Assembly (NCBI GenBank): GCA_964548565.1 | Contig: CAZJTF010000001.1 | Coordinates: forward strand, 212-64,211 | Length of the DNA: 64,000 nt | Reading direction: 5' to 3' | Source: an uncultured Planctomycetales bacterium | GTDB taxonomy: Bacteria > Planctomycetota > Phycisphaerae > UBA1845 > PWPN01 | In this document: in pieces, positions 34,470 to 62,795 of the stretch | How the letters are laid out: the number at the start of each line of letters is the position of its first letter | Position numbering within the stretch: position 1 is the stretch's first letter | Notes under the pieces: generated by a model | Database searches by the model: none | Seen by the model: the letters and a program-made list of their open reading frames with translations, nothing else | What the model was told of the DNA's origin: nothing | Translations under genes and position numbers: made by a program

Positions 34470-34665
34470 TGCTGACCTCCTCTGCTGCCCGGCCATGGCA
34501 CAGCGGCGGAAGGCCGGGGCTGCCGCCGGGATGATGTGTCCGTGCGCCGCATCGTAGAATCCGCCCGCCCGACGTGCAATCCACCCTGCTTGCAGCCAGC
34601 GCGAATGCGATTATGCTCGATTCGCCACCGTAAGGCTAAAAACACGTCCAGCAGGGGGTGTTCAG

Positions 34666-36873: not shown

Positions 36874-36945
36874 CCGGCCGCGCACGCGGCCTGGGCCATT
36901 CGGATGACTCGCCCGCCGGGCGCGGGCACTCTCAGGAGAAGCAAC

Positions 36946-38244: not shown

Positions 38245-38305
38245 CAATCGACATCCGATCTGGCTCGCGTCTGCCTCCTTGCCGCCGTGGCTGGAGGAGG
38301 CGAAG

Positions 38306-42203: not shown

Positions 42204-44222
42204 TCAATTGTTCACCCGCTCCGGCTTCGCCGTCTGCCCTTCCATCGTGACAGGAAGACGGAAAACATCCCCGGCTTTGTTACAGAAGTACAGGCGCGAG
42301 TCGGAGGGCTTTCGCCCGTGGCCGTCCGCCCAGAAGCCGTAGAAATCCGGGTGCGCGTTCACCGGACGCCGAACGTACGTGTGGTTGTACTCGCTGGCCG
42401 ACGTCATCTGCCGCGCCAGCTTCCAGCTCTTGCCGTGGTCGGTACTCTCCCACATGGCGATCTCGCCGCCGGGGTTGTACGCCTGCGGGCCCTGCTGCGT
42501 CGGCCCGATGATCCGCCAGCGGTCCGCTTCGATGTAAAGCGACCCGGTGTCGTAGTTGTTGTCGGAGATGATGTCGCCGCCGTTCAACTCCCAGCTCCGG
42601 CCGTTCCAATAGGCGGTCGTCCACGTCCGCGGCATGTTTTTGGGCCCGGATTCGTAGCCCTTGCTCGTCGTGTAGAGGACGACTGGGCGCCCCTCGGCGT
42701 CGCTGGCGAGATCCTGGATGTAGACGAGCAGCCCCTTGCTCTCGTACTCCTGCACGAGGGCGGGATTGACGATGTCGGTGAGCGGAATGTTCAGCGATTC
42801 ACCGCCGGCCGTCCTCCACGTCGCCCCGAAATCGTCCGATTCCATGTAGTACAGATTGGTCCGCCAGTTCAGGCCCTTGCCTTTGGGGTGGTACATGAAA
42901 CTCGTGCCGACGCGTCCGCGCCCGAGCGGACGGCTCACCTGATAATGCCCCTGGGCGATGGAGGAGAGCAGCCGGCGCTCGCTCCACTTCACGCCGTCCT
43001 CGCTCGTCATCATGCAGATGGTGCGCCCGGGGTTGTAGTACGTGTGCATCAGCAGGAAGCCGTGCCCGGAGAGATACCACGGCTGCGGGTACGAGTAGTT
43101 GCCCGTCCACACGAGTTCGAACGCGTCCACCGAGTACGGCTTCGTGCTCCGCGAGATGTACGACGGACGCGACCGCCCGTGGCTGCTCGAGAAGATCCAG
43201 ATCGTCCCCGCGTCATCGACGTTGATCACCGGGTTGTCGTGCGCGTCGTCGGTCTTCTTGTCGAGCAGGATCGTGGGGCGGGGCACCATGCCGGTCGCGT
43301 GGTCGTAGTACGACACCATGTGGATCAGGCGCGTGCTGTCTTCGGGCAGGCTCCCGCCGTACGTGAAGAACGTCTTGTTCACTTTGGGGACATACCACGC
43401 GTACGGCGTGTGATTGGCCGGGTAGGTGCCCATCCCGCCGCTGTATTTATATACGTACTCGTCGCCCGAGGGCTGATTCATGTACCAGATCCCGCGGTAG
43501 CCGGTGTCCCTGCGGTTGATCAGCACCTGCGGCGGGGCGGGCGTGAAACGCGTCGCGATCGGCGCTCCCGCCGGCTCGGCTTTCCAGGTCGTGCCCGAAC
43601 GTCCGCTCGCCGCCCAGTGTGCCACCAGCTTCTCGGAAGAGGCATCCCCCTTGCCGGCCGCCACGGCCGCGATTTCCTGGTCGCTGAGCACGCGCCTCCA
43701 GATGCGAACATCGTCGATGCTCCCGTGCAGCGGCCGTTCGCTCTCGTTGAGCGCGCCGATGAACAGCGTCTTCCCGAGGCCGTGCATCCGGCCGGGCGCC
43801 GGCGTCGATTTCGCCAGCTTCCCGTCCACGTACACGCGGATGGCCTCGCCGTCGTAGGTCCCCGCGTAGTGCACCCACTTGCCGGCGGTCGGCGCCGGTG
43901 CGACGGCGTACAGGTAATCGTTCGGTTTGTTGCGAATCAGCATCCGCACGTTGTCGCTGTACAGGTACAGCGTGAAACCGCTGTTCGCCTCTCCCGTGTT
44001 GAGGAGCACCTGCGATCCGGTGACATCCGCGAGCCGCACCCGTGCCGCAACCGTGATCGCCCTGGCGTCCAGCGCCGGCAGCGGGGCCGAGAAGCCCGTC
44101 TTGCCGTCCAGCGCGACGCCCTCGTTGCCGGCGGCGTGCAGTGCGGCCGCCGGGCAGAGCGCCGCCAGCAGAATTGCGGTTGAATGCAGGAGCGAGGTCA
44201 GGTGCGTGCGTCTGTTCGTCAT
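42204..44222 (-). CDS. secreted LamG + BNR_4-family protein
   Basis: Signal peptide. The LamG part has WVHYAGTYDGEAIRVYVDGKL and HGSIDDVRIWRRVLS. The next ~450 aa (YRGIWYMNQPSGDEYVYKYSGGMGTYPANHTPYAWYVPKVNKTFFTYGG...YYDHATGMVPRPTILL...DAHDNPVI) resemble the BNR_4 family. Confidence 0.7.
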   Translation of the reverse strand: MTNRRTHLTSLLHSTAILLAALCPAAALHAAGNEGVALDGKTGFSAPLPALDARAITVAARVRLADVTGSQVLLNTGEANSGFTLYLYSDNVRMLIRNKPNDYLYAVAPAPTAGKWVHYAGTYDGEAIRVYVDGKLAKSTPAPGRMHGLGKTLFIGALNESERPLHGSIDDVRIWRRVLSDQEIAAVAAGKGDASSEKLVAHWAASGRSGTTWKAEPAGAPIATRFTPAPPQVLINRRDTGYRGIWYMNQPSGDEYVYKYSGGMGTYPANHTPYAWYVPKVNKTFFTYGGSLPEDSTRLIHMVSYYDHATGMVPRPTILLDKKTDDAHDNPVINVDDAGTIWIFSSSHGRSRPSYISRSTKPYSVDAFELVWTGNYSYPQPWYLSGHGFLLMHTYYNPGRTICMMTSEDGVKWSERRLLSSIAQGHYQVSRPLGRGRVGTSFMYHPKGKGLNWRTNLYYMESDDFGATWRTAGGESLNIPLTDIVNPALVQEYESKGLLVYIQDLASDAEGRPVVLYTTSKGYESGPKNMPRTWTTAYWNGRSWELNGGDIISDNNYDTGSLYIEADRWRIIGPTQQGPQAYNPGGEIAMWESTDHGKSWKLARQMTSASEYNHTYVRRPVNAHPDFYGFWADGHGRKPSDSRLYFCNKAGDVFRLPVTMEGQTAKPERVNN

Positions 44223-44394
44223 CAGTGCTTCCTTTCGCGCGAGGAGTGGATCCGCAGTATCACCTCTGGCGCAGGACGTGGCAACTCTGGGATGTCGATG
44301 GACCGCCGCCCAGGACCCGCGCGCCGCGCCGGGCCGGGGCCTTCAGTGGCGGAAGAGCGGCGGGGTGCCAGCGCCCCCTCCCGCGATAACGCCG

Positions 44395-47300
44395 TTACGG
44401 CACGCACGTCGGAGCAGCCGAGTGCCGCCACGGGACGGCTGGTCCGCTGACGCACCGCACGAACTGCTCGAAATCCGCCGCGCCGATGATGTGGTCGCCG
44501 TCCCGGTCAAAACAGAGGCAGGCCGGGTCCGCGCCCGCCGCCCAGCCGCCCGGTCCGGTGATGCAGGCTTGAAATGCGCCGAAATCCGAATGATCCACAT
44601 CGAGATCGCCGTCCGCGTCCGCAAAGGGGAAGGCGCATGCCGGCCGGCACGGCTCGTCGGGCTGCTGGATCGGGCGCAGGAAATCCCCCCGCCCGAGCGC
44701 GCGATCCACGATACGGATCTCGTCGATCATGCCATAGAACCCGCGGTCCGCCATACCTCCGCCGCGTCGGTTCCCGATGATCAGGGGAGCCGGGCCGGCA
44801 GGCGCGAGTGAAACGCCCGTGACGTGCCCCTCGAGCTGCCCGTCAAGGTACCAGCGCAACTCGCCGCCCTGCGCGACGAGCGCGAAGTGGTGCCACGTCC
44901 CGGCGGTGACCGGCGTCTGCCCAGGCTCGACGTGGTCCGCCTCGTCATCCCCCCGCCAGAAGACCGACAGCACGTTCCCGCCCGCCCCCGCGTGCAGTCC
45001 GATGGCCAGGCGCGACTCGGTATCGAGCGATGATCGCTTCTGCGTCACCAGCCTGCGTCCGACGGACATGGGCGCGGTGATCGGAGATGTGTCGAACGTG
45101 TTGAAGAAGCCTTCGAATGTGAGCGTCTCCTGCAGCGAGCCGGCGTTGCTCGGCAGGTGCGTGTCAATGGCCGCGCTCAGGTTGCCCGGCAGCAGCATGG
45201 CGAATTGCCCGGCGCTCGTTGCCGGAGCATCTCCAACGCCCGGCTGCCCATAGGCGACGTACGTCAGTGGTGAGCCCGCGCCTGCCGTTCCGTCGGCGCC
45301 GTGAATGTTCTCGATCGCCCCGCACAGTCCGCTGTCAACGAGCCCGTGGCTGACCGCCGCCCCTGGCTCGGCCTCGAACCCCGAGCACCACAGGACGCCC
45401 GTTCCGGCCGCTCCGCATGCCGCGTCGCACGACCCGCCGTCCAGCAGGAACTCCGCCGGCGCCCGCACCTGGTCTGAGATCCGCACCTCGTCGAGCAGTC
45501 CGTAGAACCCGCGGTCCTCGACGCCCGACAGACGGTTGTTCGCGAGGCTCACCGGGCCGGAGCCCGCCGCCACGAGCGTCGACGCCGGCACCTGCCCCTG
45601 GAGGTTGCCGTCGAGGTACCACGTGATCGCGGCTCCGTCGTACACGAGCGCGAAGTGGTACCATCGATCCGCCAGGACCGGCGTCGTTCCCAGCTCGAGA
45701 TGGTTCGTTCCGCTGGTGTCGTACCAGAACACCGACAGCAGGTTCGCCGGGCCGCCGCCGCCTGCGATCGGTGCATTGCGATCGGTGACCGCCGCGTATG
45801 TGTTCCCCACGCGGATCTCGTCGATCTCGCCCTTGTTGCTGTTGAGCCCCATGACGAGCCGAATGTGCGAAATCGTGGCCGTGCTCGACGTCTGGTTGCT
45901 CAACATCCACGTCGCGGGCTCCGTGACGGGCACCGCGGCTCCGGCCGGGTAGAAGTTCATGAAGAACTCGTCCGCCGAGGATGCGTGTGCGACGATTTTG
46001 CCGATCACCAGGTAGGTCGTGCCCGCTGTCACCGTCCCCGCGACGTTTGTGGACGCGTTGAGGAAGAACTGGTCCGGCGTGGTGGAGCCTCCGCTCGTCA
46101 TGCCGAACCGCGCGACCTGCGTGCTCGTGCCCGGCGTGAAACTGATCTCGAGGTTCTCCGCGCTGTTCGCGGACGTCGACGTTTTGCGCAGCAGCCCGCT
46201 GACATACAGGACCCCGCCCTCCTGCGCCAGGTTGATGCTGCGGCTCAGGGCTCGCACCGCTTCCACCGTCCCCGACGCGCCGGCGTTCACGCCGCTCAGG
46301 CGCGAACCCACGGACGGAAACAGCGGCGTCGTAAGGCTGACGGAATCATTGGTCAGGATGGCAAAATCCGCATCGGCGTCATCCCAAGCCCCTCCCCAGC
46401 CGATCCCGCCCGCCTGCTGGTGGAGAGTCGTGCCACTGTATTGGAACCCCTCGTAGTCAAAGAGGCCGTCGGTCCCGGGCGCGGATCCGCCGTGCAGCCC
46501 GATCGCCAGGCGCGACTCGCCATCGCCGTCACTGCGTTTCTGCGTCACCAGGCGGCGCCCGACATACGTCGGCGACGTGATCACCGCGCTCTCTTGCGTG
46601 CGGAAGAACCCCTCGAACGTCAGTGTGTTCTGCAGGTTGCCCGCGTTGCTCGCCAGGGCCGTGTTGATCCCGACGCTGCGATCGTTCGGGAGTGCAATAG
46701 CGAAGGCGCCGGCGTCGCCCGTCGGTGCCGTGCCGGTCGCCGGCTGCCCGTACGCGGCGTACGTCAGCGGCACCGTCCCCGCCGGGGTGCCGCTCGCCCC
46801 CGCGGCGTTGCGCACGATCGAAACCGGCTGCCCGTTCGTGACCGGACCGATCGCGAGCGTTTCAAACGGCGAGCGCCACAGCGGCGGCGCGGAGTTCGAC
46901 ACCTCGCCGAAGTCCGTGACGCGCTCCGGGCGCGCCGAATCGCCTGCCATCGTCCAGGGGAGCCGCCACACGTTCGCCCCGGAGCGGTCGCAGAAGTACA
47001 GCCGCGAATCCGTCTTCATCAGGGCGTTGCCGTCCGCCCAGAACGCGTAAAACGGGTCGCGGGCGTGCCGCGGACGACGGACGTACGAGTGGTTGTACAC
47101 GCTGCCCGTCGTCACGTCGCGCACCTTCGTCCACGTCGCCCCGAGGTCCTGGCTGATCCACACCCCGACCTCGCCGCCGGTGCCGTACACCTGCGGGCCG
47201 TTCTCCGTCGGACCGATGATGCGGAGCGTCTCGCCCTCGAGATAGAGGTTCCCCACGTCATAATTGTGGTCCGACACGGTGACCACGCTGTGGACCCACT

Positions 47301-48360
47301 CAGCGCCCGACCACCGCGCCAGCCGCCAGGTGCGGGGGTCGCCTGCGGGGCCGGCGGCGTAGTTCTTCGACGTGATGTACAGGATGTACGGTTTACCTTG
47401 CGCGTCGAGCTGGGTGTCGTTGATGTAGCACAGCATGCCCTGCGCCTCGTAGTTCACCACGAGGGCCGGGTTGCTGACCTGGCTGAGCGGCAGCGTCAGG
47501 GGCGTGCCGTTCACCGTTGTCCACGTCTGACCCCTATTCACTGTCTGCATGTAGTACAGATTCGTCCGCCGGTCGACATTGCCGCCGGGGTGGTAGTTGA
47601 ACGCCGTCCCGATCCTGCCATCGCGCTCCATTGAGGTCTGGTAATGGCCGCCAAATCCGACCATCTTCGAATGCGGCGTCCAGTTCACGCCGTCGGCGCT
47701 GGTGGCCCAGTACAACTCGCGTCCGGCCGTGTACTTCGTGAACATGTGCAGGAAAAGCGGCGGGTTCACACCGTCGTCGAGATACCACGGCTGCGGGTAC
47801 GTCCGCTCGTCGGTCACCTGGTGCTCGAACGCCTCAGTCGAGTACGGCTGTGTGCTCCGGTAAATAAACCCCGGCCGCGCCGTGCCGCGCCCGCTGATGA
47901 AGACCCACAGGTAACCGTCTCGGTCAATCAGCAGCGAGCCATTGTCGTGCGGATCGTTAATGCCCACCTTATGGTAGACTACAGTGGGGCGGGGGACGGT
48001 GCACGTCGCGTGGTCATACCACGACGCCAGGATGAGCAGGTCGCCCGTGGCAGCGTCCACGCCGCCGTAGACGAAGAACGTCTTGTCGACGGCCGGCGCG
48101 TAAATGGCGATCGGGACGTGATTGGCGGTGTACGTGCCCAGCCCGCCCGAATACTTCGGGCCCCATTCATTGTCCTGGCCGATCGTGAACCAGATGCCGC
48201 GGTAGCCGTCGAGTTTGGTGTTCGGCTCGACCGCCGCCGTGGCTGTCGCGAGCGTCGCGAGTACCGTCGCGACGATTGCAGCCTTTCCCGACACGGATCG
48301 CGACCACCATCCCGATACGCTCGTGCGGACTGCCTCCGCTGCACCCTGTTGCCCACACAT
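44395..48360 (-). CDS. 1321-aa secreted BNR_4 + two LamG domains (the first split by a nested module) + dockerin-like tail
   Basis: The N-terminal YRGIWFTIGQDNEWGPKYSGGLGTYTANHVPIAIYAPAVDKTFFVYGG is paralogous to 42204..44222. LamG motifs: WYHFALVYDGAAITWYLDGNL, FYGLLDEVRISD, WHHFALVAQGGELRWYLDGQL, FYGMIDEIRIVD. The nested module is at 45781..46470. The tail at 44398..44637 is FADADGDLDVDHSDFGAFQAC...CLCFDRDGDHIIGAADFEQFVRC...C. Confidence 0.75.
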   Translation of the reverse strand: MCGQQGAAEAVRTSVSGWWSRSVSGKAAIVATVLATLATATAAVEPNTKLDGYRGIWFTIGQDNEWGPKYSGGLGTYTANHVPIAIYAPAVDKTFFVYGGVDAATGDLLILASWYDHATCTVPRPTVVYHKVGINDPHDNGSLLIDRDGYLWVFISGRGTARPGFIYRSTQPYSTEAFEHQVTDERTYPQPWYLDDGVNPPLFLHMFTKYTAGRELYWATSADGVNWTPHSKMVGFGGHYQTSMERDGRIGTAFNYHPGGNVDRRTNLYYMQTVNRGQTWTTVNGTPLTLPLSQVSNPALVVNYEAQGMLCYINDTQLDAQGKPYILYITSKNYAAGPAGDPRTWRLARWSGAEWVHSVVTVSDHNYDVGNLYLEGETLRIIGPTENGPQVYGTGGEVGVWISQDLGATWTKVRDVTTGSVYNHSYVRRPRHARDPFYAFWADGNALMKTDSRLYFCDRSGANVWRLPWTMAGDSARPERVTDFGEVSNSAPPLWRSPFETLAIGPVTNGQPVSIVRNAAGASGTPAGTVPLTYAAYGQPATGTAPTGDAGAFAIALPNDRSVGINTALASNAGNLQNTLTFEGFFRTQESAVITSPTYVGRRLVTQKRSDGDGESRLAIGLHGGSAPGTDGLFDYEGFQYSGTTLHQQAGGIGWGGAWDDADADFAILTNDSVSLTTPLFPSVGSRLSGVNAGASGTVEAVRALSRSINLAQEGGVLYVSGLLRKTSTSANSAENLEISFTPGTSTQVARFGMTSGGSTTPDQFFLNASTNVAGTVTAGTTYLVIGKIVAHASSADEFFMNFYPAGAAVPVTEPATWMLSNQTSSTATISHIRLVMGLNSNKGEIDEIRVGNTYAAVTDRNAPIAGGGGPANLLSVFWYDTSGTNHLELGTTPVLADRWYHFALVYDGAAITWYLDGNLQGQVPASTLVAAGSGPVSLANNRLSGVEDRGFYGLLDEVRISDQVRAPAEFLLDGGSCDAACGAAGTGVLWCSGFEAEPGAAVSHGLVDSGLCGAIENIHGADGTAGAGSPLTYVAYGQPGVGDAPATSAGQFAMLLPGNLSAAIDTHLPSNAGSLQETLTFEGFFNTFDTSPITAPMSVGRRLVTQKRSSLDTESRLAIGLHAGAGGNVLSVFWRGDDEADHVEPGQTPVTAGTWHHFALVAQGGELRWYLDGQLEGHVTGVSLAPAGPAPLIIGNRRGGGMADRGFYGMIDEIRIVDRALGRGDFLRPIQQPDEPCRPACAFPFADADGDLDVDHSDFGAFQACITGPGGWAAGADPACLCFDRDGDHIIGAADFEQFVRCVSGPAVPWRHSAAPTCVP

Positions 48361-48476
48361 GATGAGACAATCCTCCTGGCGCGGGACAGGCCGCGCTGCA
48401 CTTCTCCACAGGAGAGGACTTCACTGTTGTCCCGGCCGGAATCCTGCAACCGCGCGGCTCCGCCCGGTCCCCGCGA

Positions 48477-49307
48477 TCATCTCGTATCCCGGCGGCGCAT
48501 GCCGAGCAGGCCCGCCACGCCGAGCAGCGCCAGCGTCGCCGGCTCCGGGACGGCCACCGACGCCCAGTCGCTGCCGATCCGGATCTCGTCGATCTCGGCG
48601 TACGAATTGCTTGCCCCCACGTTCACGCGCAGCTGGGTCAGCACATCGCTGCGCGCACCACTGGTGGTCAGGCTCCAGGCAGCCGGTTCCGAGGCGGGCA
48701 CCGTATCGTTCGGGCCGTACACCTTCAGGAACAGCTGGTCCGATCCGGCCGCGGAGGAGACGAGCTTCGCGACCAGGAAGTATACGGTGTCCGCGCCGAT
48801 CGGCGCCGCGCCGTTGTTGGTATCCACCGCGTTGAGGCCAACGTAGAACACGTCGGCGGCGCTCACGCCGAAGCGAAAGCCGATTGTGCCGCCGGTGGTC
48901 CGGAACTGGAACTGCACGTCCGAGCCGGCCGTCGCGGCGCCGTCCGCCCCCCGGCGAACCAGGGTGCTGGCGTACAGGACGCCGTCCTCGGCCAGGCTGA
49001 CATTCTGGGCCAGATTTCGGACCGCCGCCCGGTCCACCGTGGCGCCGTCGCTCGGCGGGATGCGGATCAGCCGCGAGCCGACGGGCGCAAACGGGAACGC
49101 AGCCGAATCGAGGCTGACCCCGTCGTTGGTCAGCCGCGGATCACCCGTCGTGTTCACCCACGGGCCGCCCCAGCCGATCCCGCCGTTCTGGTCCGCGATG
49201 GCCGTGCCCGTGTAGTCGAACCCGTCGTAATCCAGCAGGGCGGCTTGCGCCGCTCCCGCGGCCGCAAGGCACAACACCCCGCACACAAGAGTGCACGTCA
49301 TTTTCAT
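48477..49307 (-). CDS. PEP-CTERM protein consisting of one free copy of the GIGWGG module
   Basis: ATG at 49307 after GGAGAAG. Signal peptide. LLDYDGFDYTGTAIADQNGGIGWGGPW ... YAEIDEIRIGSDWASV. The tail VAVPEPATLALLGVAGLLGMRRRDTR is at 48480..48557. Confidence 0.75.
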   Translation of the reverse strand: MKMTCTLVCGVLCLAAAGAAQAALLDYDGFDYTGTAIADQNGGIGWGGPWVNTTGDPRLTNDGVSLDSAAFPFAPVGSRLIRIPPSDGATVDRAAVRNLAQNVSLAEDGVLYASTLVRRGADGAATAGSDVQFQFRTTGGTIGFRFGVSAADVFYVGLNAVDTNNGAAPIGADTVYFLVAKLVSSAAGSDQLFLKVYGPNDTVPASEPAAWSLTTSGARSDVLTQLRVNVGASNSYAEIDEIRIGSDWASVAVPEPATLALLGVAGLLGMRRRDTR

Positions 49308-49417
49308 AGCTTCTCCTTCCGCTCCGAAAAGCACTCAGCCGATCTCGTTGCGTCAATTGCTCCGAAAAGGCGTCCCGCCGTCTCCGGACCTCACGTCCTC
49401 CCCGTGACTGCTCCACC

Positions 49418-52048: not shown

Positions 52049-52165
52049 GGCAGCCTCCTTCCGTTTCGGGCGGGTTTGCCCTTCCCCCGCTCTCCATCGG
52101 GCGGCCTGATGGAATGCCGCTCTCCGCGATTCGAAGCTTCTACATCTCAGCCCACGCCGGTCCGA

Positions 52166-53029
52166 CTACGGGATCCGGTCGAGAACCTTGTAATACGCAG
52201 CCTGCTCCTCGGGCTTGGGTGCAACCGAGGTGATGGGTCGCAGTGCCTTCAGCAGATCCGGCCGCGCCCATCGCACCGACCCGTCTCCGAACAGCCGCAT
52301 GTAGCCTTTCCCCTGGTGCGGTGCGGAAACGTAGCCGACATCAATGCCTCCGCCCTTGAACTGGTCCACTCCCGTGAAGTCGGAGTAGATGACTTTCTGG
52401 GCGAGGCTCGTCGTGATCAGTCTTGCGGGGTTTGCGTTGAGCATCGTCTCGGTGTAGCGCCCCAGCCGCCAGTAGGTGATGACGCCGGCCGGCATCGGGT
52501 CGGTCCGGGCGCCCGCGCCGATCTGTGCATTGGCGGCCATGACCTCGATGAGGCGCGCGGGATACGAGCAGCGGAGCTGCACCTTCGGGTTCAGGGCCTC
52601 CCACTCGCTCTCCCAGTACCACTTGTTGTCGGGGCCGTTGAATGCGAGGCTCGCGCTGTGCGAGGCATGCTGGCCGGGGCAGTAGAAAGCCCGCGGGTCC
52701 TTGATGTACTTGCGGTTGGCCAGTTTCCCCAGGTTGATCGTCCCGACCGCCGGGCTCCGCATGTAGTAGGTCGTGAATGAGCTCGCCGTTCGGTACAGCG
52801 GCGGCAGGTTTTCGCGCGAATCGTTGGCGTAGGCAAGGATCGCCAGGCTGAGCTGGTGCAGGTTGCTGCTGCATTGGGAGCGCTTGGCTGACTCCCGTGC
52901 CGATTTCAGGCTCGGAATCAGGATGGCGACCAGCAGGGCGATGATCGCGACAACCACCAGCACTTCAATGAGCGTGAATGCCCGAACTTGTCGGCTCGGT
53001 CGTGAACCCTGCAACGTCGGCATGGGCAT
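52166..53029 (-). CDS. DUF1559 / HX9DG-type prepilin-like protein (type II secretion/type IV pilus pseudopilin-like)
   Basis: ATG at 53029 after GGAGG. The prepilin leader and methylation site are [36 protein letters not shown]. The C-terminus is [17 protein letters not shown] (an H-x(9-10)-DG motif). Confidence 0.8.
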
Positions 53030-53278
53030 GAGGCTGCCTCCGACAACGAGATAACAACGCCGCCTGAAAAGACTTGCATGGCCGGACCTGCCGCGGCCGA
53101 TCTGACATTCCTGCGCCCCGGGCCGGATCGATATGAACCGGATCCGACACGGGGACAGACCGTCGGCAGTCCACCTGTTCCCCTGCAGCTTATGCTTTGC
53201 CGCCCAGCCATTCAAGACAGAAATCGGTGGTAACCGGTAACTCCGATCCGCGGGCGTTTTGATGTTGGGCGTCAGAGC

Positions 53279-53309
53279 AAAACGCACCGCACCTTTTTTG
53301 ATGTGGTGC
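53279..53309 (-). terminator. possible intrinsic terminator between the two cassettes
   Basis: The minus strand reads gcaccac-atcaaaaaag-gtgcggtgc-gtttt (7/9-bp stem with one bulge, followed by a T-tract), about 75-100 nt downstream of the stop at 53381. Confidence 0.3.
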
Positions 53310-53380
53310 TCGTCCACCTGGCCCAACGGCACGGCTGCGACAAGGGGTAACCGCACCGGATCGGTCTGCCCGGTCCGAAA

Positions 53381-56300: not shown

Positions 56301-56791
56301 TGCCCGGTCTGCACGCGATAGACCAGGTCGAAATCCGGGTCCCCGCGGACCACGCGCGCCGGCAACGGGACCCAGCTCTCCTGCGCGACGGTCTGGTCAG
56401 CCTGCGTCAGCATGATGACCGTCCCGCCGTTGTTCACGAACTGGTTGAGCGTCGTCGCGGCGCTCGCCAGGGCCGATTTAATCGTGCTTTGCTGCGTGCA
56501 GAAGCTGCCGACGATAAACGTGTCGAAACCGGCGAGATTGATCGCCTGACCGCTCTGCACCTGGGCAGTCTTGTCGGTATAGCTCTGCCCGATGTCCGTG
56601 AGCAGCTGGCCGAGCCCCTTCGTGTTCGAGAACTGGTCCTGGTAGTCCAGAATCGCCACGGTAACCGCCCCGCGCGCCGACAGGGACACCGCCAGCGCGA
56701 CCAGGATCGCGAGTGCGCCCGCGCTTCTCCCTGCCCGCCCTGGTCCCGCTGTGTTGACCTGCTCCGCGGAACGAACGACCGATCCCGACAT
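53381..56791 (-). CDS. 1136-aa secreted multidomain protein: GATase1/ThuA-like + SdrD-B-like + metallophosphoesterase + Ig-like + PQQ-type beta-propeller + dockerin-like tail
   Basis: Start at MSGSVV (56791). Signal-like segment ALAILVALAVSLSARG. GTVFNDADGDGVKDEGEAGIAGVGV is the SdrD-B-type motif. The calcineurin-like phosphoesterase motifs are ISDIHIG, ATGDLADSG, VFGNHD and FSGHWH. Repeated V(Y/F)xGxxxGx(L/V)xA beta-propeller blades (BamB/PQQ-like). The tail at 53384..53602 is DVDKDGDVDQTDFGYVQIC...C..C. Confidence 0.7.
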   Translation of the reverse strand: MSGSVVRSAEQVNTAGPGRAGRSAGALAILVALAVSLSARGAVTVAILDYQDQFSNTKGLGQLLTDIGQSYTDKTAQVQSGQAINLAGFDTFIVGSFCTQQSTIKSALASAATTLNQFVNNGGTVIMLTQADQTVAQESWVPLPARVVRGDPDFDLVYRVQTGHQLFSTPNVISDSNLQGWRYTGSATWSTSWESIVTFEQVGVLAGDGATDVSLASIVEAGWGTGRALFLSLAPDKARNIGNTQAKLQAPRLMRNMLKYAEDVKAGTVPPIVIYRGGGWSGPITGTVFNDADGDGVKDEGEAGIAGVGVSDTIDLAVTAGDGTYTLPNAAGDARLIYISLPSGYAKTNTWYKRISGSSAPADFSFALASAEESRPFDFAQISDIHIGGNGTTALLTSALGEVAALKSPPKFILATGDLADSGSNLSHFDGYVAGVNSSAVPVFSVFGNHDANSGGASNYRKYLGPDYYSFDYADCHFLILNAIQKTTQQQAWVAKDLQLLRGSKRLFIFQHYSPSQEEHTQFQSWSAEAVFSGHWHSQHTVSVGSMTSYNTATFLFGGIDCSPAGFKVISVTTDRSTSRMRWIADGKQLQIVTPSNSVLVPNDDVLVIVNAYETSADVESVGYRVEHSGEVVAEGSLTRQGQWSWRTMLPAAQIPRGAYDLHVTATNDRGETSTAQTTFTVLGLRKPRTAPDGEWTQFGGGPARGGVAAGALEPPLGPVWAADTEGTIDFGSPVVKDKTVYVGVKDRGDLEKNGVLALKAEDGSRVWFTPTPAAVSHSVTLDQDRVYACSHGGVVHALNRTTGAPIWSSELGSPYQRFQYSGPLLLNGALFAGTYAYFASFNPATGSKNWPQSYGADWISSNACPSGTGNIVVVPANWANNVRAVNAATGATIWQYSVQGLHGSPVIVGNDVLFTDYSGTLHCAVLANGSSRWTRPLGGGRSASTPAVANGIVVAGGTGYIRGFRLDTGAQIWEKQLATSALKMAPYNNTFAALAGSPTIADRIAYVPCGDGRLYALNLDTGAEVWSMRFGTPLLSAPCIIGNVMYLTAFDGNVYALASRSAFAIPTDVDKDGDVDQTDFGYVQICLTPNGNIEVLPGCEPVNFNLDPLVDQADVEMLLDCLSGANRDIDTNCLN

Positions 56792-56940
56792 AGGACAGCT
56801 CGACAAATAAGGGCGCTGCCGGGTCAGACAGAAACTTTCCAGCCGACCCGGCAGCGCCGGCCCTGAAAACTGTCTACCGGGAAGCGGGCTGCTCTCCCCA
56901 TCGCCCGCTCCCCCGGTAGAAGCGTGACTCCGCCTGCCCC

Positions 56941-58515
56941 TCAGCGCGACAGGCTGCGGCGACGCCTCGCCGCGACGATCCCGCAGGCGGCCATCATCAT
57001 CAGGCACAGCCCGGGTTCCGGAATCTCGACGACCAGCGGCGTGCCCGGAATCCCGCCGTACCACGTGTAGTAAGCGCCATTGTCGGCGCCGCCGTTGCCC
57101 CAGCTCGCCAGCCCGACGCTGCCCGCCAGGATCGGGTCGTTCAGGTCGGTGATGACCGGGTAGTTGATCGGCAGGCCCCCGACGGGGGTCACCTGCACGA
57201 ACAGCTGGTTTCCGATGGCCTTGACGCTCAGGTCGAACGGAACTTCCGTCCCCGCCCCGCCCGAATCATCCATGAACACGAACAGAGGATTCGACTGGTT
57301 GTCGCGGAACAGCTCGGACCAGACGCCGTCCTTGAACTTCTGCACCGACAGCCCCTGCGGCGCCCGCTCCCACATGTTCGTCGCCGTGATCGTCTGCCGG
57401 GCGAAGTTGACCCGGTAGAATGCGCTGTCGTTCTCCTGCACGCGCACGAGCACACCCACCCCGTCGTCGTCCAGGTTGGCGACCCGCACCTTCATTTCGT
57501 AGTTCGACATCGCGCTGCTGCCGGGCTCGTTGACAACGACGGCGGGGCTGATGAAGTCCACGTTCGGCGTGGCCTGCGTCGCCCATTCGTAACCGTTGCT
57601 GTCCTCACCGATCCGGCCCTTCGGGAACTGCAGGCGGAAATTGCCCAGGTCGTCTCCCTGGCCGCCCGTGTTGCCGGCGGAATTCCGCATCGTCACCGCG
57701 CGCCAGCTCACCGGCGACGTGAACGATTCCGAAAACAGCGTGTTCGCGTTGTTCGCGTCGGTGACCGTGACCTGGCTGGCCTCGACACCCCAGAGCGCCC
57801 GGAGAGCCGAGGGCGAATTGGCGGTGCCGCCATTGCGCTCATACCAGGAGTGAACGCCGATCTTGCCGGCCTTCAGGTCGGCATCCGTGCCGCTGTGGAT
57901 CAGCGTGTTGTCCACGTAGACCGACCAGGCCGTCCCATTCACCTCGACTTTGACGTTCATGGGGAAGTAATTTGCCGCGTCATTGTCGGTGATCTTCGGC
58001 ACGAACGTTGTGCTGGGGGCGGCGATCTGCGTGATGGCGTTGTTGACCACCTTCTGGACCGACACGCCCCTGCCGAAACCGAGGTTGCTGCTCTGGTTGC
58101 GCAGCCCCACGCGGAAGTAGTTCCCCGTGTCCTGCCAGCCGAACACGACCCCGAATCCGTCGTCGTCGTTCGTCGTCAGGGTCGTCGTGAAGTTGTACGC
58201 GTCCGGGGTCGTGAAATTGTCGTTGATCATGATGTACGGGGTGTACCGGCCGTCCGTCGAGGAGGTGCTGTCACCCCACCGTCCGCCGCCCGATTCCTGC
58301 AGCGCGCCGGTCCGCAGGTGGATGCCCCAGTTCGGCTTCTCAACCGTCGCCGGCGCCAGGGTCGGCGACTGGTTGGGGTTGGTCGGGTTCGGATCGACCC
58401 ATCCGTTGTAGCTGTTGATAAAGGGGTCGCTGATCAGCGGGTCCCCCGGGGCGCCGAGCGCCGGCAGCGCCGCCGCCGCGAGCGACAACAAGGCAAGAAT
58501 TCGCACGATCGTCAT
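56941..58515 (-). CDS. 524-aa PEP-CTERM protein built from two DDDG-motif beta-sandwich modules
   Basis: AGGAGGG lies 7 nt upstream of the ATG. Signal peptide MTIVRILALLSLAAAALPALGAP. NDDDGFGVVFGWQDTGNYFRVGL and LDDDGVGVLVRVQENDSAFYRVNF. The tail VEIPEPGLCLMMMAACGIVAARRRRSLSR is at 56944..57030. Confidence 0.75.
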   Translation of the reverse strand: MTIVRILALLSLAAAALPALGAPGDPLISDPFINSYNGWVDPNPTNPNQSPTLAPATVEKPNWGIHLRTGALQESGGGRWGDSTSSTDGRYTPYIMINDNFTTPDAYNFTTTLTTNDDDGFGVVFGWQDTGNYFRVGLRNQSSNLGFGRGVSVQKVVNNAITQIAAPSTTFVPKITDNDAANYFPMNVKVEVNGTAWSVYVDNTLIHSGTDADLKAGKIGVHSWYERNGGTANSPSALRALWGVEASQVTVTDANNANTLFSESFTSPVSWRAVTMRNSAGNTGGQGDDLGNFRLQFPKGRIGEDSNGYEWATQATPNVDFISPAVVVNEPGSSAMSNYEMKVRVANLDDDGVGVLVRVQENDSAFYRVNFARQTITATNMWERAPQGLSVQKFKDGVWSELFRDNQSNPLFVFMDDSGGAGTEVPFDLSVKAIGNQLFVQVTPVGGLPINYPVITDLNDPILAGSVGLASWGNGGADNGAYYTWYGGIPGTPLVVEIPEPGLCLMMMAACGIVAARRRRSLSR

Positions 58516-58566
58516 CTTCTGCCCTCCTGAGGCTGCTGCCTCGGTTGAATGTCGAACACCTCCAGC

Positions 58567-61500
58567 CTACTCATTGGCACAGTTCGCGTCCAGAGGCATA
58601 TCGCCTGAATAGCATGCCTGAAAGATCGCAAAGTCATCCATATCGACGTCCGTGTCGCCGTCGCTGTCCGCCCGGTTGCACCGTACGTCCGGGTTGGTCC
58701 GCGGAATGGTGGGCCCGCTCGCGCAGGTCTTCCAGAGAATAAAGTCGAGATCGTTCACCCGGTTGTCGTCGTTCAGATCCGGGATGGGCCGTCCGGCAAC
58801 ACCGACGACACGCACATTGTCGAAAACGCCGGCCGTATCGATGTACTTCGTCCAGTCGAAGCCGATCCCCAGGTAGTTGTTGATCTCGTCGACGCGGCCG
58901 TCGGCGTCTCCCATCCCCCACACTGTCGCGCCGATCTTGCCCTGCAGCAGGGGGTTCGACGGATCGGAGAACGACCACATGTACTGTGTGACGCCGTCCG
59001 CCGTCGCGTTCGGCCCGCCGTAATCGCACTCGGAGTCGCTGTCCAGACAGAGCTCGGTCACCTTGATGTTGAAGTCAGCCCCGGTGGCCTGCAGTTCCAG
59101 GCGCCATCTCTGCCCCGGGCGATACACGAAGCCGGCGTTGTAAAACATCTCCTGGTAGGTGCCCGCCAGCCGCTTCTGGACCGACACGCCCTGCGGCGGG
59201 CCGCCGTTCGCGTTGTTCGCCTGGCTCATGAACATCAGGCGGTAAAAGTTCTCCTCGTTCTGGTAGCGGAACAGCACGCCGATCCCGTCGTTGTCCAGCG
59301 CCTGTATGTCCACCGTGTACGTGTAGTCGATCCAGTGGCTCTCGCCGGCCACCGCCCGCGGACCGTCGAAATTGGTCGTGCCCCGCGTGTTGTTGCCCTC
59401 TTCCAGGAAGGCTGTCCCGACAATGTAGCGGTTGTCGCGCGCGCCCAGCGCCTTCAGATCCTCGCGGATGCCGATCCCCGAGGTCTTCGCTCCCGTCCAT
59501 GCCTGGCTGTACGACGCCGACTCGCCCAGTACCGAGTCCACATCGGACATCGTCTCCTGCGTGGCATCCACCCAGCCTTTCGGATCGGGCGCACCCATCC
59601 CGTCGGTGAACACAGGCTGGCTCTGGCCCGCCAGCGTCAGCTTGATCTCGCGGAACTCGTTGACGTTGTTGCCCCAGGTGTGCAGGCCCACCGTGCCGCG
59701 CGTGAGCGGCGCGGGATCCACCACCGTCGCCTGGTAATAGTTGTCCTGTTCGTATCCGGTATCGAGCGTGTCGATCTGGATCCGGAACGTCCCGCCGGTG
59801 CAGATCACCCGCGCCCGCCAGATCTTGAACCCCTCCTCGATACCTCCGCCCGCCGCCCAGCCGGCCGAGTTGTACTTGAAGCCCGCCAGCGGCGTGCTAT
59901 CGTTGTCCCCGGGCGCGGTCGAATCGATATCGCTGAACAGCTCCGAGTACACGCCGTTCACGACCCGCTGAACGCTGATGCCCGACGGCGGCGCGCCCGT
60001 GCTGACCTGCGCCTCGTCCTGGAACGTCAACCGGTAGAAGTTCTTCTCGTCCTGGAACCGGAACAAGAGACCGATGCCGTCGTCATCGTGCGCCTCGATC
60101 ACGGCCTCGTATGTGTAGTCCGTCCAGTTGGTCGCCCCCGGATCCATGCGGACCAGCCGCGGCCCCTGGAACTCCCGCCGCTGACCCGTACCGTCCGCCA
60201 TGTTGGCATTGCTCGACATCTCCAGGGCGGAGTTCTGGAATTTGCGGATCCAGCTTCCGGTCAGGCTGGTTCGGATGGGCACGCCCCGCGCGATGTTCGT
60301 TGCGACTCCGCCCACGACCTTCTGGGCCGAGGCGCCCTGGGCAAAGCCGTAGCTCCCGGTCGCCTCGTTTCGGAAGCCGACCCGGAAGTAGTTGTTGTCA
60401 TCCACGTGCCCGAATACGAGCCCCAGCCCGTCATTGTCGTAACTTCGCAGGCGGGCACGGAGCGTGTAGTCCGCCCCGGCGTTGAACCCGTCCTTCACGA
60501 GCACGTACGGAACGTACTTCCCGTCACCATTCGTGCCGCCGTCGAGCGAGCCGCCGTTCCTCTGGCGACCGTCCGTGGGATCGAGAAGGTTTGCCGTCGA
60601 CAGCAGGCGGATGCCCCATGCGGCGGGCCGCCCCGCGATCTGCGGAACCGCCGGGTCGTACGTGCTTCGCCAGTTGTTGTAACCCTTCGGCAACACGTCC
60701 CCGACCAGCGTGATCGGCGTCGCGTCCGTGGTCACAATGAACGGCGTGCTGACCCCCCCGTAGCTGTAGAAGAACGTCGCGTCATTACCCCACGCGTGCA
60801 GTCCGGCCGTGCCGGCGGGCACCGGGTCGCTGGCGTCCACGATGTCCGGATACGTGATGGTCTGAGGTGACGGGCCGGCCGGATCGTTCACAACCGTCAG
60901 TTGGATTGTCGCCGTCCCGCCGCTGCCCGTGATCCGCGCCCGCACATCGAACGGGATGTTTGAGGCGTACGTGAACAGCGGGCTACCCTGGTTGTCCCGG
61001 AAGATTTCGCTCCAGACACCGTTGCGGCACTTCTGGACCGAGACGCCCTGGGGGGCCCGCTCCCACGCGTTGGTCGCGGTAATCGCCTGACGGACAAACG
61101 TGATCCGGTAGAAGTTCGTATCATCCTGCGCCCGGAGTAACACGCCCATGCCGTCGTCGTCCGTGGCCAGCAACCGGACCTTCGCTTCGTAATCGGCCCA
61201 GGCAGAACTGCCGGCCGCGTCGTACGCGACAGCAATGCCCATGAAGTCCACGTTGGGGGCGTTGTTGGTGGCCCACGTAAAGTAATTGCTGTCGTCCGTG
61301 TAGGCGCCCCGGTGGAAATCCCACCGCAGGTCCCCCAGGCTTCCCAACTCGGTCACCGCCGCGCCCATCGCGTTGGTCGTGAGCATCCGCCGCCATTTGC
61401 CTGCGATGATCGCCGGAAGCTCCCACGTCTCCTGCAGCAGGGTCGCCCCGGCGCCGTCCTCCACAGTTAAGTACTCGCACTCCGTCCCCGAAATGGGGCT

Positions 61501-61833
61501 TCCACCGCGCTGAGCCCAGGACATCACGCCCACCGACCCCGCATGCAGATCCGGATCCGTTCCCGACAGCGTGGCGCTGCCGTTCACGGTAATGGTGAAC
61601 GTCTGCCCCACGACCCGCACCTCCACGTCGAAGGGCGTCCCGTCGATCGGGGGCGAAAAGTCGTGCGGAACAGACCACGCCGGCAGCGCCGCGTGCGTCA
61701 TGGCGTTCTGCCACGGGGCCCGGTTGAAATCGTCCTCGAAGAGCAGGCTCTGCCCGGCCGTGGTCGAGACCACCCCCAACAGCAGCGCGCAGAACAACCC
61801 TTTCCCCATGAAGGCTCCGTGCCGTTGTGACAT
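58567..61833 (-). CDS. 1088-aa secreted protein with four or more DDDG-motif beta-sandwich modules + dockerin-like tail
   Basis: ATG at 61833 lies 7 nt after AGGAG. Signal peptide. Motif copies: TDDDGMGVLLRAQDDTNFYRITF, YDNDGLGLVFGHVDDNNYFRVGF, HDDDGIGLLFRFQDEKNFYRLTF, LDNDGIGVLFRYQNEENFYRLMF. The tail at 58570..58785 is DLNDDNRVNDLDFILWKTC...C..DSDGDTDVDMDDFAIFQAC...C. Confidence 0.75.
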   Translation of the reverse strand: MSQRHGAFMGKGLFCALLLGVVSTTAGQSLLFEDDFNRAPWQNAMTHAALPAWSVPHDFSPPIDGTPFDVEVRVVGQTFTITVNGSATLSGTDPDLHAGSVGVMSWAQRGGSPISGTECEYLTVEDGAGATLLQETWELPAIIAGKWRRMLTTNAMGAAVTELGSLGDLRWDFHRGAYTDDSNYFTWATNNAPNVDFMGIAVAYDAAGSSAWADYEAKVRLLATDDDGMGVLLRAQDDTNFYRITFVRQAITATNAWERAPQGVSVQKCRNGVWSEIFRDNQGSPLFTYASNIPFDVRARITGSGGTATIQLTVVNDPAGPSPQTITYPDIVDASDPVPAGTAGLHAWGNDATFFYSYGGVSTPFIVTTDATPITLVGDVLPKGYNNWRSTYDPAVPQIAGRPAAWGIRLLSTANLLDPTDGRQRNGGSLDGGTNGDGKYVPYVLVKDGFNAGADYTLRARLRSYDNDGLGLVFGHVDDNNYFRVGFRNEATGSYGFAQGASAQKVVGGVATNIARGVPIRTSLTGSWIRKFQNSALEMSSNANMADGTGQRREFQGPRLVRMDPGATNWTDYTYEAVIEAHDDDGIGLLFRFQDEKNFYRLTFQDEAQVSTGAPPSGISVQRVVNGVYSELFSDIDSTAPGDNDSTPLAGFKYNSAGWAAGGGIEEGFKIWRARVICTGGTFRIQIDTLDTGYEQDNYYQATVVDPAPLTRGTVGLHTWGNNVNEFREIKLTLAGQSQPVFTDGMGAPDPKGWVDATQETMSDVDSVLGESASYSQAWTGAKTSGIGIREDLKALGARDNRYIVGTAFLEEGNNTRGTTNFDGPRAVAGESHWIDYTYTVDIQALDNDGIGVLFRYQNEENFYRLMFMSQANNANGGPPQGVSVQKRLAGTYQEMFYNAGFVYRPGQRWRLELQATGADFNIKVTELCLDSDSECDYGGPNATADGVTQYMWSFSDPSNPLLQGKIGATVWGMGDADGRVDEINNYLGIGFDWTKYIDTAGVFDNVRVVGVAGRPIPDLNDDNRVNDLDFILWKTCASGPTIPRTNPDVRCNRADSDGDTDVDMDDFAIFQACYSGDMPLDANCANE

Positions 61834-61901
61834 GTTGAGCTCCTCTACCCTGACGTCAGACCACAATTCTCAACCGGCGTCTGAAAACGTCCCCGCTGGT
61901 C

Positions 61902-62795
61902 CTATCGCTTGATGTACTCCTGCGGGACGTGGCTGACCGACATGTCGCTCCGGTCCAGCGTCCTGTATGTGTTCTCGCGGGTGATCCAGCCGGCGTGCAT
62001 GTCGGCAAACAGCATGTTCCAGCCCTTCGGCCCGTGGTTGTCCAGCGGGCTGTCCGGCCAGTTGTTGATGTCGGCGGTCCCGAGGATCTCCGGATCGTCT
62101 CCGTCCAGCACCAGGATGACGTACGCGGCCCTCTTCTGAACGATCCGGGGCCGCTTCAGCGAATCGGGGAAGCCGTTGTTGTCCGTGTCCACGTCGCCCC
62201 GCCCGGTGTACAGCGCGTACGGAAGCCGTGGATTCTGCGTCTCGGCCGATCCCGGTCCGGCATAGTCGTACTTCTGGAATCCGTTCCAGAACTCGTAACT
62301 GTGGCCGTAGTGGCCGTCCGCGCCGCCGTGGTCCCGGCTGTCGGCGTTGTTGTTCAGGTCGGCCGCCTTCATGAGCCGGTTGTTCGTCCCCGGGCAGATC
62401 AGGAGGCCCCAGTCCCGGATGTACCGCCGGCTCGGTGAGCCCTTCGATGCGCCCGGGTTCCCTCCGCCGCCCGGGCGTGGAATGCTCTTCATATCCAGCG
62501 CGAGCGCCACGACCGAGTCCCCGCCGATCGTGTCCTTTCCCCAGCGCCAGGTGGTGAAGTCGAACGGGTGGTTGTACATGAAGTAGTCCTGGTTGTGGTC
62601 CTCCGAATAGAGCGTCATGGCCTGGCCCATGCCGCGGAGGTTGGCCTGGCATCCCACGCGGTAGGCCTGCTCCCGCGCCTGGCGCAGGGATGGCAGCAGG
62701 ATCGAAACAAGCAATGCGATGATGGCCACGACAACGAGGACTTCAATCAGGGTGAACCCTGACGTTGACCGGCGTCCGACGTCGGCTCTTCTCAT
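61902..62795 (-). CDS. DUF1559-type prepilin-like protein (variant C-terminal motif)
   Basis: [40 protein letters not shown]. The C-terminus is [17 protein letters not shown], with the DG of the HX9DG motif replaced by AD. Confidence 0.8.

Follow-up and report, generated by a model that had tools for sequence, protein, structure and literature searches.

Why would a run of genes for secreted lectin-like proteins and enzymes be headed twice by a gene for a pilin, and is such a run one system or two? The question is raised by nine consecutive minus-strand genes (g1-g9) spanning 42204-62795 of a 64-kb window (the whole stretch of DNA analysed, 64,000 nt of contig CAZJTF010000001.1 from an uncultured Planctomycetales bacterium); their products are two prepilin-type proteins (g1 and g5) and seven proteins with signal-peptide-like N-termini. 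We read the run as two adjacent, separately inherited, pilin-led, operon-like cassettes, block 1 (g1-g4) and block 2 (g5-g9), each specialised for one extracellular polymer, and put the probability of this reading at about 0.6. Judged by its genes, each cassette comprises its own prepilin subfamily, then non-catalytic proteins with concanavalin A (ConA)-like lectin modules, in a PEP-CTERM version and in a giant with a dockerin-like tail, and secreted enzymes last. The open reading frames (ORFs) lie exactly at the coordinates given by an initial annotation of this DNA, whose call of a signal peptide or prepilin leader for all nine products also stands, the signal peptides by a hydropathy heuristic only (a charged N-terminus followed by a hydrophobic stretch in the seven non-pilin proteins). 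The nine genes are as follows.

61902..62795, minus strand: g1, first gene of block 1, prepilin-type protein of 297 aa with leader G↓FTLIE, a long hydrophobic helix and a divergent head (N_methyl 30.7 bits)
58567..61833, minus strand: g2, secreted protein of 1088 aa with about four TSP_C-like (ConA/L-lectin-like) modules and a dockerin-like C-terminal tail (TSP_C 39.7 bits)
56941..58515, minus strand: g3, PEP-CTERM protein of 524 aa with two modules of the g2 type (by module similarity and tail motif)
53381..56791, minus strand: g4, secreted protein of 1136 aa with an unassigned N-terminal domain, MetallophosN, Metallophos, an Ig-like domain, a PQQ_2/BamB-like beta-propeller and a one-loop dockerin-like tail (by Pfam/NCBIfam)
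52166..53029, minus strand: g5, first gene of block 2, DUF1559 prepilin-type protein of 287 aa with leader A↓FTLIE (DUF1559 37.6 bits, N_methyl 27.3 bits)
49418..52048, minus strand: g6, secreted non-catalytic protein of 876 aa with two laminin G-like (LamG) repeats, a g7-type module nested in the first, and a four-Cys dockerin-like tail (Laminin_G_3 110.9 bits)
48477..49307, minus strand: g7, PEP-CTERM protein of 276 aa, a free-standing ConA-like lectin module (PEP-CTERM 23.5 bits)
44395..48360, minus strand: g8, putative secreted enzyme of 1321 aa with a BNR_4 domain of seven-bladed-propeller type, two LamG repeats (the first with a nested module) and a dockerin-like tail (BNR_4 59.4 bits)
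42204..44222, minus strand: g9, putative secreted enzyme of 672 aa with LamG and BNR_4 domains and no tail, conserved last gene of block 2 (BNR_4 60.1 bits)

The case for two units comes from relatives, whose loci, compared here with the cassettes, are labelled with L-numbers; the nearest relatives of the cassette proteins belong to uncultured Phycisphaerae and Pirellulales. Parts of block 1 recur in 27 Planctomycetota genome loci, and its full order is found in L007, a 180-kb metagenome contig, where a g1-like pilin gene is followed by g2-like (51% identity over 713 aa), g3-like (56%) and g4-like genes (62-67% over the three g4 segments queried). The g1 homologues that precede g2-like genes in L007 and L036 show 42-57% identity, the L036 pilin (42% over 271 aa) leading two g2-like giants (41% over 1037 aa). 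The g3-g4 pair is conserved in L008 and L010, and the g4 orthologues that follow g3-like genes in L007, L008 and L010 keep 56-68% identity over the N-terminal, Metallophos-containing and PQQ segments. A strict metallophosphoesterase motif scan of the related loci returned these three g4 orthologues and one unrelated 373-aa ORF (L036). The g3 family itself consists of ~510-530-aa PEP-CTERM proteins of Pirellulales and Phycisphaerae. In cultured Aeoliella the set comprises an RpiR-type regulator, a DUF1559 protein, a small lipoprotein, a short PEP-CTERM g3-like protein, its ~1200-aa paralogue, a weak-Metallophos protein and a major facilitator superfamily (MFS) transporter; in other Aeoliella loci (L012, L013) an equivalent protein of ~790 aa has a dockerin-like tail, and the Aeoliella phosphoesterases are of a different, weaker-matching family from g4. 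At least seven genome loci have a short anchored form and then a long paralogue within ~3 kb. Finally, ORFs with a prepilin leader lie at most 4 kb from a g3-like gene in 14 of 24 genome loci; counted over the 27 genome loci, there are 15 such ORFs within that distance (182 kb) vs. none in the 202 kb farther out.

Two minor features of these relatives stand apart. At 5130-6128 of L007 the g1-like pilin is split between two adjacent ORFs (209 and 122 aa, from a stop-to-stop scan), which could reflect a frameshift, a pseudogene or an assembly error. At 9529-9921 of the Aeoliella locus L009, between the DUF1559 and g3-like genes, lies a gene for a 130-aa protein with a lipoprotein-like N-terminus and a stretch 'GTVTMDGKP...', which we take to be carboxypeptidase-regulatory-like; the cassettes of the window have no such gene.

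For block 2, the series of pilin, g6-like, g8-like and g9-like genes recurs in three Phycisphaerae lineages (L037, L038 and L039-42). The g5 orthologues that head it are 58-60% identical to g5 in L037 and L038 and 41% in L039-42, and across L037, L038 and L039 the partners are conserved at 54-58% (g6-like), 62-74% (g8-like) and 65-68% over 643 aa (g9-like), with both the nested insert and the tail retained in the g6 orthologues. In the assembly collection, 56 blocks hold the L039-42 protein. Pilins at lower identity to g5 lead other sets: that of L044 (42%) leads two BNR_4 genes with a GH106 (glycoside hydrolase family 106) rhamnosidase nearby, and that of L043 (39%), itself preceded by an extracytoplasmic function (ECF) sigma factor and a g7-like PEP-CTERM protein, leads GH39 and PQQ_2 genes. 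In L037 and L038 an unrelated 247-aa PEP-CTERM protein immediately precedes the pilin, and block 2 of L039-42 has a ceramidase-like gene and GH127 at its flanks. A pilin together with a PEP-CTERM lectin-like protein and secreted enzymes recurs, built of non-homologous parts, in L003, L043 and L037/38. Regulators of sugar type (GntR/LacI, a two-component system, ECF/FecR, RpiR) stand beside the relatives' cassettes.

The blocks are adjacent in none of the relatives seen (L007, L008, L010, L036-L042), and in one metagenome-assembled genome (MAG; GCA_018003015.1) the block 1-like locus L008 and the block 2 locus L037 lie on separate contigs. Because of this unlinked occurrence we favour two cassettes over one island; the nine-gene region consists, by gene order in relatives, of two independent, separately inherited cassettes that lie side by side here. 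The suggestion of the initial annotation that each block may be a unit is thereby borne out, block 1 by its order in L007 and its parts in L008, L010, L036 and Aeoliella, block 2 (pilin, g6, g8, g9) by L037, L038 and L039-42.

The two head genes are both pilin-like at their N-termini, with scores for PF07963 (N_methyl) of 30.7 bits in g1 and 27.3 bits in g5 vs. a cutoff of 21.2, and with TIGR02532 above cutoff in both. DUF1559 (PF07596, SBP_bac_10) is matched by g5 at 37.6 bits vs. a cutoff of 23.3, and the DUF1559 matches of g1 and g5 cover just ~30-45 residues past the helix. The GspG model (TIGR01710) scored 35.5 and 37.3 bits in g1 and g5, limited to model residues 1-55, vs. an equivalog cutoff of 88.85; the GspG/ComGC matches of both proteins comprise the N-terminal helix only, below cutoffs. 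The H-X9-DG domain (TIGR04294) gave no NCBIfam match in g1 or g5 at E ≤ 0.01, and by eye g5 has H-X10-DG and g1 H-X10-DM, variants only of the H-X9-DG motif. An AlphaFold2 (AF2) model of g5 (m1b0cd979eb47; mean confidence score pLDDT 89.9) consists of a 50-residue N-terminal helix (20-70) and a globular head; the PDB sequence search of the DUF1559 head returned pilin N-terminal helices only. Presumably the Pfam short name SBP_bac_10 implies a relationship of DUF1559 with solute-binding proteins; the g5 model, confident and with no PDB fold match, gives no support to such a relationship for the head. The strongest reason to link the pilin head functionally with its cassette is that g1 and g5 are just 25% identical (over 100 aa) and yet the orthologues of each stay with their own cassette, which argues for a functional coupling of each pilin subfamily to its putative partners.

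A different use of a pilin-type head was seen in L008, a Phycisphaerae MAG locus, where a minus-strand gene at 16603-18948 encodes a 781-aa protein with GH172 domains fused to an internal T2SSG (GspG globular) domain. This protein starts with a Sec-type signal peptide, not with a prepilin leader, and amounts to a pseudopilin head grafted on a glycoside hydrolase.

What polymer might each cassette serve? In block 2, g8 and g9 are both above the BNR_4 Pfam cutoff (27.3 bits), and a profile of the BNR_4 domains matched structures of polysaccharide lyase family PL25 (5UAM, E 1e-13), of GH145 (5MUM, 1e-12; 5MUK, 5e-12; also 5MVH, ~1e-12) and of PL42 (7ESK, 6e-5). The catalytic residues of PL25 are His123, Tyr188 and Arg204 (PMC8377490), the first two of which fall on positions that are invariant across the family (H94 and Y144 in its alignment). 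Characterised BNR_4-related enzymes (GH145, PL42, and the PL24/PL25 ulvan lyases) act on glycans containing rhamnose and uronate (PMC8377490, PMC13193363). Given these structural matches of BNR_4 and the GH78 rhamnosidase gene beside the cassette, the most likely role of block 2 is degradation of a rhamnose-uronate glycan, a prediction that rests on remote similarity. Compared with the PL25 ulvan lyases, GH145 rhamnosidases and PL42 Rha-GlcA lyases that share Pfam BNR_4, g8 and g9 resemble these enzymes in matching their structures and conserving His and Tyr at the PL25 catalytic positions, but differ in that BNR_4 is fused to LamG repeats (with a dockerin-like tail in g8); they may act as lyases or as hydrolases.

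In block 1, g4 scores 45.1 bits for PF00149 (Metallophos; cutoff 21.5) and 39.6 for MetallophosN (cutoff 35.6), and its translation shows all five metallophosphoesterase metal-binding motifs (DIH, GD, GNHD, H and GHWH). The TSP_C match in g2 covers the stretch DNDGIGVLFRYQ..FYR, a motif that is present again elsewhere in g2 and in g3, and g2 and g3 are 41% identical over 355 aa (E 4e-69, SEG masking on); g2 also has a weak 3keto-disac_hyd match. Although Pfam gave no match over the g3 PEP-CTERM tail, the tail is readable in sequence (IPEP, a hydrophobic stretch, RRRR), aligns to the PEP-CTERM tail of the g7 family with 94% probability (hhalign), and is of a type for which several members of the g3 family carry PF07589; g3 is predicted to be a cell-surface-anchored copy of the g2-type modules. 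A PDB sequence search with the g3 family found nothing but one spurious antibody match. The other PEP-CTERM call, that of g7, passes in both Pfam (PF07589, 23.5 bits vs. 20.7) and NCBIfam (TIGR02595, 23.7 vs. 16), so that both proteins keep the PEP-CTERM label they were first given. In both, as in the PEP-CTERM/exosortase sorting system (Haft 2006, PMC1569441), the protein ends in PEP, a hydrophobic helix and an Arg-rich stretch; the differences are that the scanned window ORFs hold no exosortase and that a link to pilin-led enzyme cassettes lies outside the described system.

With SEG masking on, g6 and g7 are 44% identical over 236 aa (E 5e-36), g7 matches g8 at E 5e-25, g6 and g8 are 50% identical over 861 aa, and g8 and g9 are 48% identical over 443 aa; the module similarities first noticed in the two blocks, including that of g2 and g3, remain significant with low complexity masked. 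When LamG repeats 1 and 2 of g6 are aligned (52% identity), ~250 aa of repeat 1 (residues 171-420; nt ~50804-51526) stand out as an insert, so the g7-like module is truly nested in the g6 LamG; a further g7-type module is nested in g8 at ~45766-46482. When the nested module was cut out of g6 and g8, a full-length LamG_3 Pfam match was not regained. The AF2 model of g7 (pLDDT 85.5) is a ConA-like beta-sandwich for which Foldseek returned PL20 and PL7 glucuronan lyases, calreticulin, L-type lectins and GH131. This module has no Pfam match in g7, g6 or g8, but a full hidden Markov model (HMM) search found its family to be large, with 11,807 cluster representatives at E ≤ 1e-3 and 630 at E ≤ 1e-30; the module, typically starting with Y[ED]GFxY...GGxGWxGxW and ending in DEIRIG, is either free (~270 aa, often with PEP-CTERM) or repeated, up to ~13 matched stretches, in proteins of up to 7,987 aa.

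A rough neighbour-joining tree places g7 in a free-standing clade with P0002-P0004 and the nested modules in their own clade; this separation marks g7 as an addition specific to its lineage rather than a recent duplicate of the insert. The earlier description of g7 as a free copy of the module nested in the g6 LamG therefore holds for nesting and similarity and not for recent copying. In the same tree the nested modules of g6-like and g8-like proteins (including L039 10911-17648) group by genome, not by gene, and the free PEP-CTERM copy of L005 forms a pair with the module of the adjacent BNR_4 protein; this clustering suggests local duplication or gene conversion between neighbouring module genes. 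The gene context of g7 relatives rests on three loci (L003, L005 and L006). By hhalign the g3 and g7 families are related in their PEP-CTERM tails only, and the two blocks therefore share no detectable body module.

The C-terminal tails of g2, g4, g6 and g8 had all been called dockerin-like. Searched alone, the g2 tail passes Dockerin_1 (24.2 bits vs. a cutoff of 22.9); that of g4 scores 16.3 bits, and those of g6 and g8 give weak EF-hand matches, each sub-threshold alone. A profile of the four tails matched cellulosomal type I dockerins (CelS) at E 2e-4 and also calmodulin EF-hands at E 0.002-0.02, and the tails appear, on these profile matches, to be dockerin-like in a loose sense. They are retained in the g6-like and g8-like orthologues and in L007 and L036. 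With cellulosomal type I dockerins they share putative duplicated Ca-binding loops at the C-terminus of putative secreted enzymes, but they differ in their four conserved cysteines, in the single clear loop of g4, in equal similarity to EF-hands and in a Gram-negative host.

Put together, a working mechanism would run as follows. All seven partner proteins would be exported by Sec, and an exosortase would anchor g3 and g7. In block 2 the LamG and g7-type modules would bind a rhamnose-uronate glycan (ulvan-, arabinogalactan-protein- or exopolysaccharide-like), the BNR_4 propellers of g8 and g9 would cleave its L-rhamnose-(1,4)-uronate linkages, and the neighbouring GH78 would complete the release of rhamnose. 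In block 1 the TSP_C-like lectin modules would hold a polymer, possibly a phosphodiester-containing glycan, that the metallophosphoesterase and beta-propeller protein would process. The pilins would be cleaved by a prepilin peptidase and inserted in a type II secretion/type IV pilus-like fibre encoded elsewhere, to which they would lend a cassette-specific function. The role that we favour for them, capture or retention of the polymer on the fibre, is the weakest step of this mechanism and one we hold tentatively, at somewhat worse than even odds.

A broader proposal builds on this mechanism: that DUF1559 pilins are interchangeable, substrate-specific subunits that program one shared planctomycetal pilus/type II secretion-like machine, a pilus-based functional counterpart of the Bacteroidota Sus system. 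We regard this as speculative and, on balance, rather doubtful. If true, a per-cassette set of pilin, PEP-CTERM-anchored lectin and soluble enzymes sharing lectin modules would explain why DUF1559 is the largest paralogue family of these bacteria.

Several observations weigh against the reading of two polymer-specific, pilin-led cassettes. Both pilins had been assigned to DUF1559 at first, and g1 scores 18.7 bits, under the 23.3 cutoff that g5 passes. Foldseek of the g5 model against the PDB gave no match with E < 2 (the best was ~2), and because the head is without a structural relative no binding function can be read from it. The third PL25 catalytic residue, Arg204, falls on a hydrophobic position, some six residues away from an invariant Arg. 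A glycan role had been offered for both blocks; it is well supported in block 2 by the BNR_4 matches to PL25, GH145 and PL42, and in block 1, a conserved lectin-plus-phosphoesterase cassette, the substrate is a guess that may be a phosphodiester-containing glycan. The same internal order claimed for both blocks fails, since L037-42 have no g7-like gene in the interval from g6-like to g8-like, which puts g7 outside the conserved core, and PEP-CTERM genes occur at various positions. Operon structure is inferred from gene spacing, the intergenic gaps inside the cassettes being 51-172 nt. Genes for a prepilin peptidase, secretin, ATPase, exosortase or cohesin were absent from the scanned ORFs of the 64-kb window (a few smaller ORFs lay outside the scan). 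Lastly, the related loci were found via the cassette genes themselves, so that the generality of a pilin-led arrangement across DUF1559 genes is outside their scope.

Among other explanations, the one that survives best makes the pilins cargo-specific adaptors of a type II secretion pseudopilus, with a shared secreton exporting the large folded cassette proteins and no contact between pilin and polymer. All seven partners have signal-peptide-like N-termini and must pass the outer membrane, and the pilin N-terminal helices do match GspG and ComGC models, but at 35-37 bits the GspG equivalog scores fall far under 88.85, in classical type II secretion systems a single set of pseudopilins serves many cargos, and g5-type pilins at ~40% identity accompany quite different cargos (L043, L044). 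It is because classical secretons need no cargo-specific pseudopilins, and because g5-type pilins travel with different cargos, that we rank cargo-specific export below capture as the role of the pilins; both that role and the adaptor explanation as a whole we judge possible but unlikely. Type II secretion export has been proposed for an analogous verrucomicrobial cluster (PMC13274419), and a planctomycete type II secretion system is up-regulated on fucoidan (PMC11685898).

Improbable, in our estimate, is that the pilin head serves as docking partner (a cohesin equivalent) of the dockerin-like tails, so that the giants would be displayed on a pilus in the manner of a cellulosome. Both cassettes do pair one pilin with two tail-bearing proteins, and the tails resemble dockerins and are conserved among orthologues; however, g9 has no tail, dockerin-like tails are common in planctomycetes, and docking is made less likely by other pilin-led cassettes (L003, L043, L044) whose cargo is without such tails.

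We rejected the explanation that the nine genes are one integrated 20.6-kb island, possibly horizontally acquired, with halves that are parallel arms of a single system; the initial annotation had presented the region as such an island, and we consider this very improbable. A single strand for nine genes and a similar grammar in the two halves speak for it; against it stand the unlinked blocks of the relatives and their separate contigs in one MAG, and an ordinary base composition (GC 64-69% across the whole window, with no compositional anomaly in the nine-gene region). The 351-nt gap between g4 and g5 is also out of keeping with one island, as is the hairpin in it, and the upstream regions of the two cassettes had no common word or motif of ≥11 nt. 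The hairpin is this feature:

53265..53325, minus strand: stem-loop followed by UUUU in the 351-nt g4-g5 spacer (minimum free energy -27.6 kcal/mol, z -3.1)

This stem-loop is possibly a terminator that parts the two cassettes. A hairpin with T-tract had been noted here from the outset; the hairpin is confirmed by its energy, and the T-tract is just four U, with no call by the terminator scan. Rfam had no match in the region, stem-loop included, and across the promoter and terminator scans sigma-70 promoter matches were at the level of shuffled sequence and terminator matches below it. Chance adjacency of abundant DUF1559 genes with unrelated secreted-protein genes is scarcely credible and was rejected: the copy number of the family favours it, but synteny contradicts it, orthologous pilins staying with orthologous cassettes across lineages whose pilin identities (41-60%) are not those of near-identical strains, and prepilin ORFs numbering 15 near g3-like genes and none far from them.

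We return to capture by two pilin-led cassettes and to its place among known systems. DUF1559, a family of unknown function, has more paralogues than any other group in Planctopirus limnophila, 68 copies, two of them essential (PMC10632474). The initial annotation knew of no described system with the logic of the cassettes, but this logic is not without precedent. A 'fishing rod' hypothesis of polysaccharide uptake by planctomycete pilins exists (Boedeker 2017, in the summary given by PMC12078418), and an alginate-induced cluster of Verruconatronum alginivorum includes the gene for a PulG-like pseudopilin to which 67 proteins of that genome are homologous, a pseudopilin being among the proteins over-expressed on alginate (PMC13274419). 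Like these precedents, the cassettes place a pseudopilin paralogue, one of many, in a putative glycan-degradation cluster of the Planctomycetes-Verrucomicrobia-Chlamydiae (PVC) group, with a proposed role in polymer acquisition (PMC13274419, PMC12078418); unlike them, they add PEP-CTERM lectin-like proteins and module-sharing giants, and co-occurrence of pilin subfamily and cassette across lineages.

Compared with type II pseudopilins and type IV pilins, including modular pilins, the cassette pilins share the class III signal peptide [GA]↓FTLIE and the long N-terminal helix (20-70 predicted in g5). They differ in a ~200-aa head that matches no solved pilin, in GspG equivalog scores far below cutoff, and in genes that lie away from machinery genes and beside cargo, in families with dozens of paralogues. 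Bacteroidota Sus-like polysaccharide utilisation loci (PULs) are likewise substrate-specific cassettes with secreted or surface enzymes and a non-catalytic binding protein, anchored to the cell, whose binding module is of the type found in the enzymes, and sugar-type regulators (ECF sigma/anti-sigma, GntR/LacI, two-component) accompany the relatives' cassettes as they do PULs. Here, in contrast, neither SusC nor SusD domains were found in the nine genes or the scanned neighbours, PEP-CTERM takes the place of lipidation, a prepilin-type protein comes first, and the envelope is planctomycetal. The cassettes belong with the glycan-utilisation clusters of the PVC group, and their pilin-led arrangement with PEP-CTERM lectins and module-sharing giants is new. 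Recurring in distant relatives, they offer a testable handle on the function of the very large DUF1559 pilin family, and they bear on how planctomycetes capture and import whole polysaccharides without Sus-type transporters. We also flag the conserved lectin-plus-phosphoesterase cassette, the candidate cassette for rhamnose-uronate degradation outside Bacteroidota, and the large ConA-like module family, without a Pfam match in g7, g6 or g8.

The window is chromosomal, given its genes for PntB, ribosomal protein L21, Dus and UvrC. On the right the nine-gene run is bordered by a divergent plus-strand gene from 63305, across a spacer of ~500 nt, and on the left by a convergent plus-strand antitoxin/PIN pair (41234-42183). 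Beyond the latter, a convergent plus-strand group at 34558..41212 was assigned by domain scan, and with one minus-strand gene before it the neighbours are these.

33645-34610, minus strand: xylose-isomerase-like TIM barrel gene
34558-36873, plus strand: ceramidase-like protein with LamG
36904-38244, plus strand: GFO/IDH/MocA oxidoreductase with a twin-arginine (TAT) signal, predicted to be exported by that route
38186-41212, plus strand: GH78 alpha-L-rhamnosidase

The ceramidase-like, oxidoreductase and GH78 neighbours likely serve the same substrate as the cassette, and the genes of 33645-41212 may form one rhamnose-glycan regulon with block 2. The pair of oxidoreductase and TIM barrel, and the weak 3-keto-disaccharide-hydrolase-like match of g2, recall what we take to be oxidative pathways of 3-keto-glycoside cleavage.

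Three further observations concern the rest of the window. Between the GH78 gene and g9 lies the pair at 41234-42183, an AF2212-like antitoxin and a PIN-domain toxin (VapBC-like). At 30729-32635 on the plus strand, upstream of the glycan genes, a collagen triple-helix repeat protein is followed by a DUF4394/DUF6923 protein. The gene at 2998-6351 encodes a protein of 1117 aa in which a reprolysin-like M12B metallopeptidase domain is joined to right-handed beta-helix and Chlamydia PMP-like repeats.

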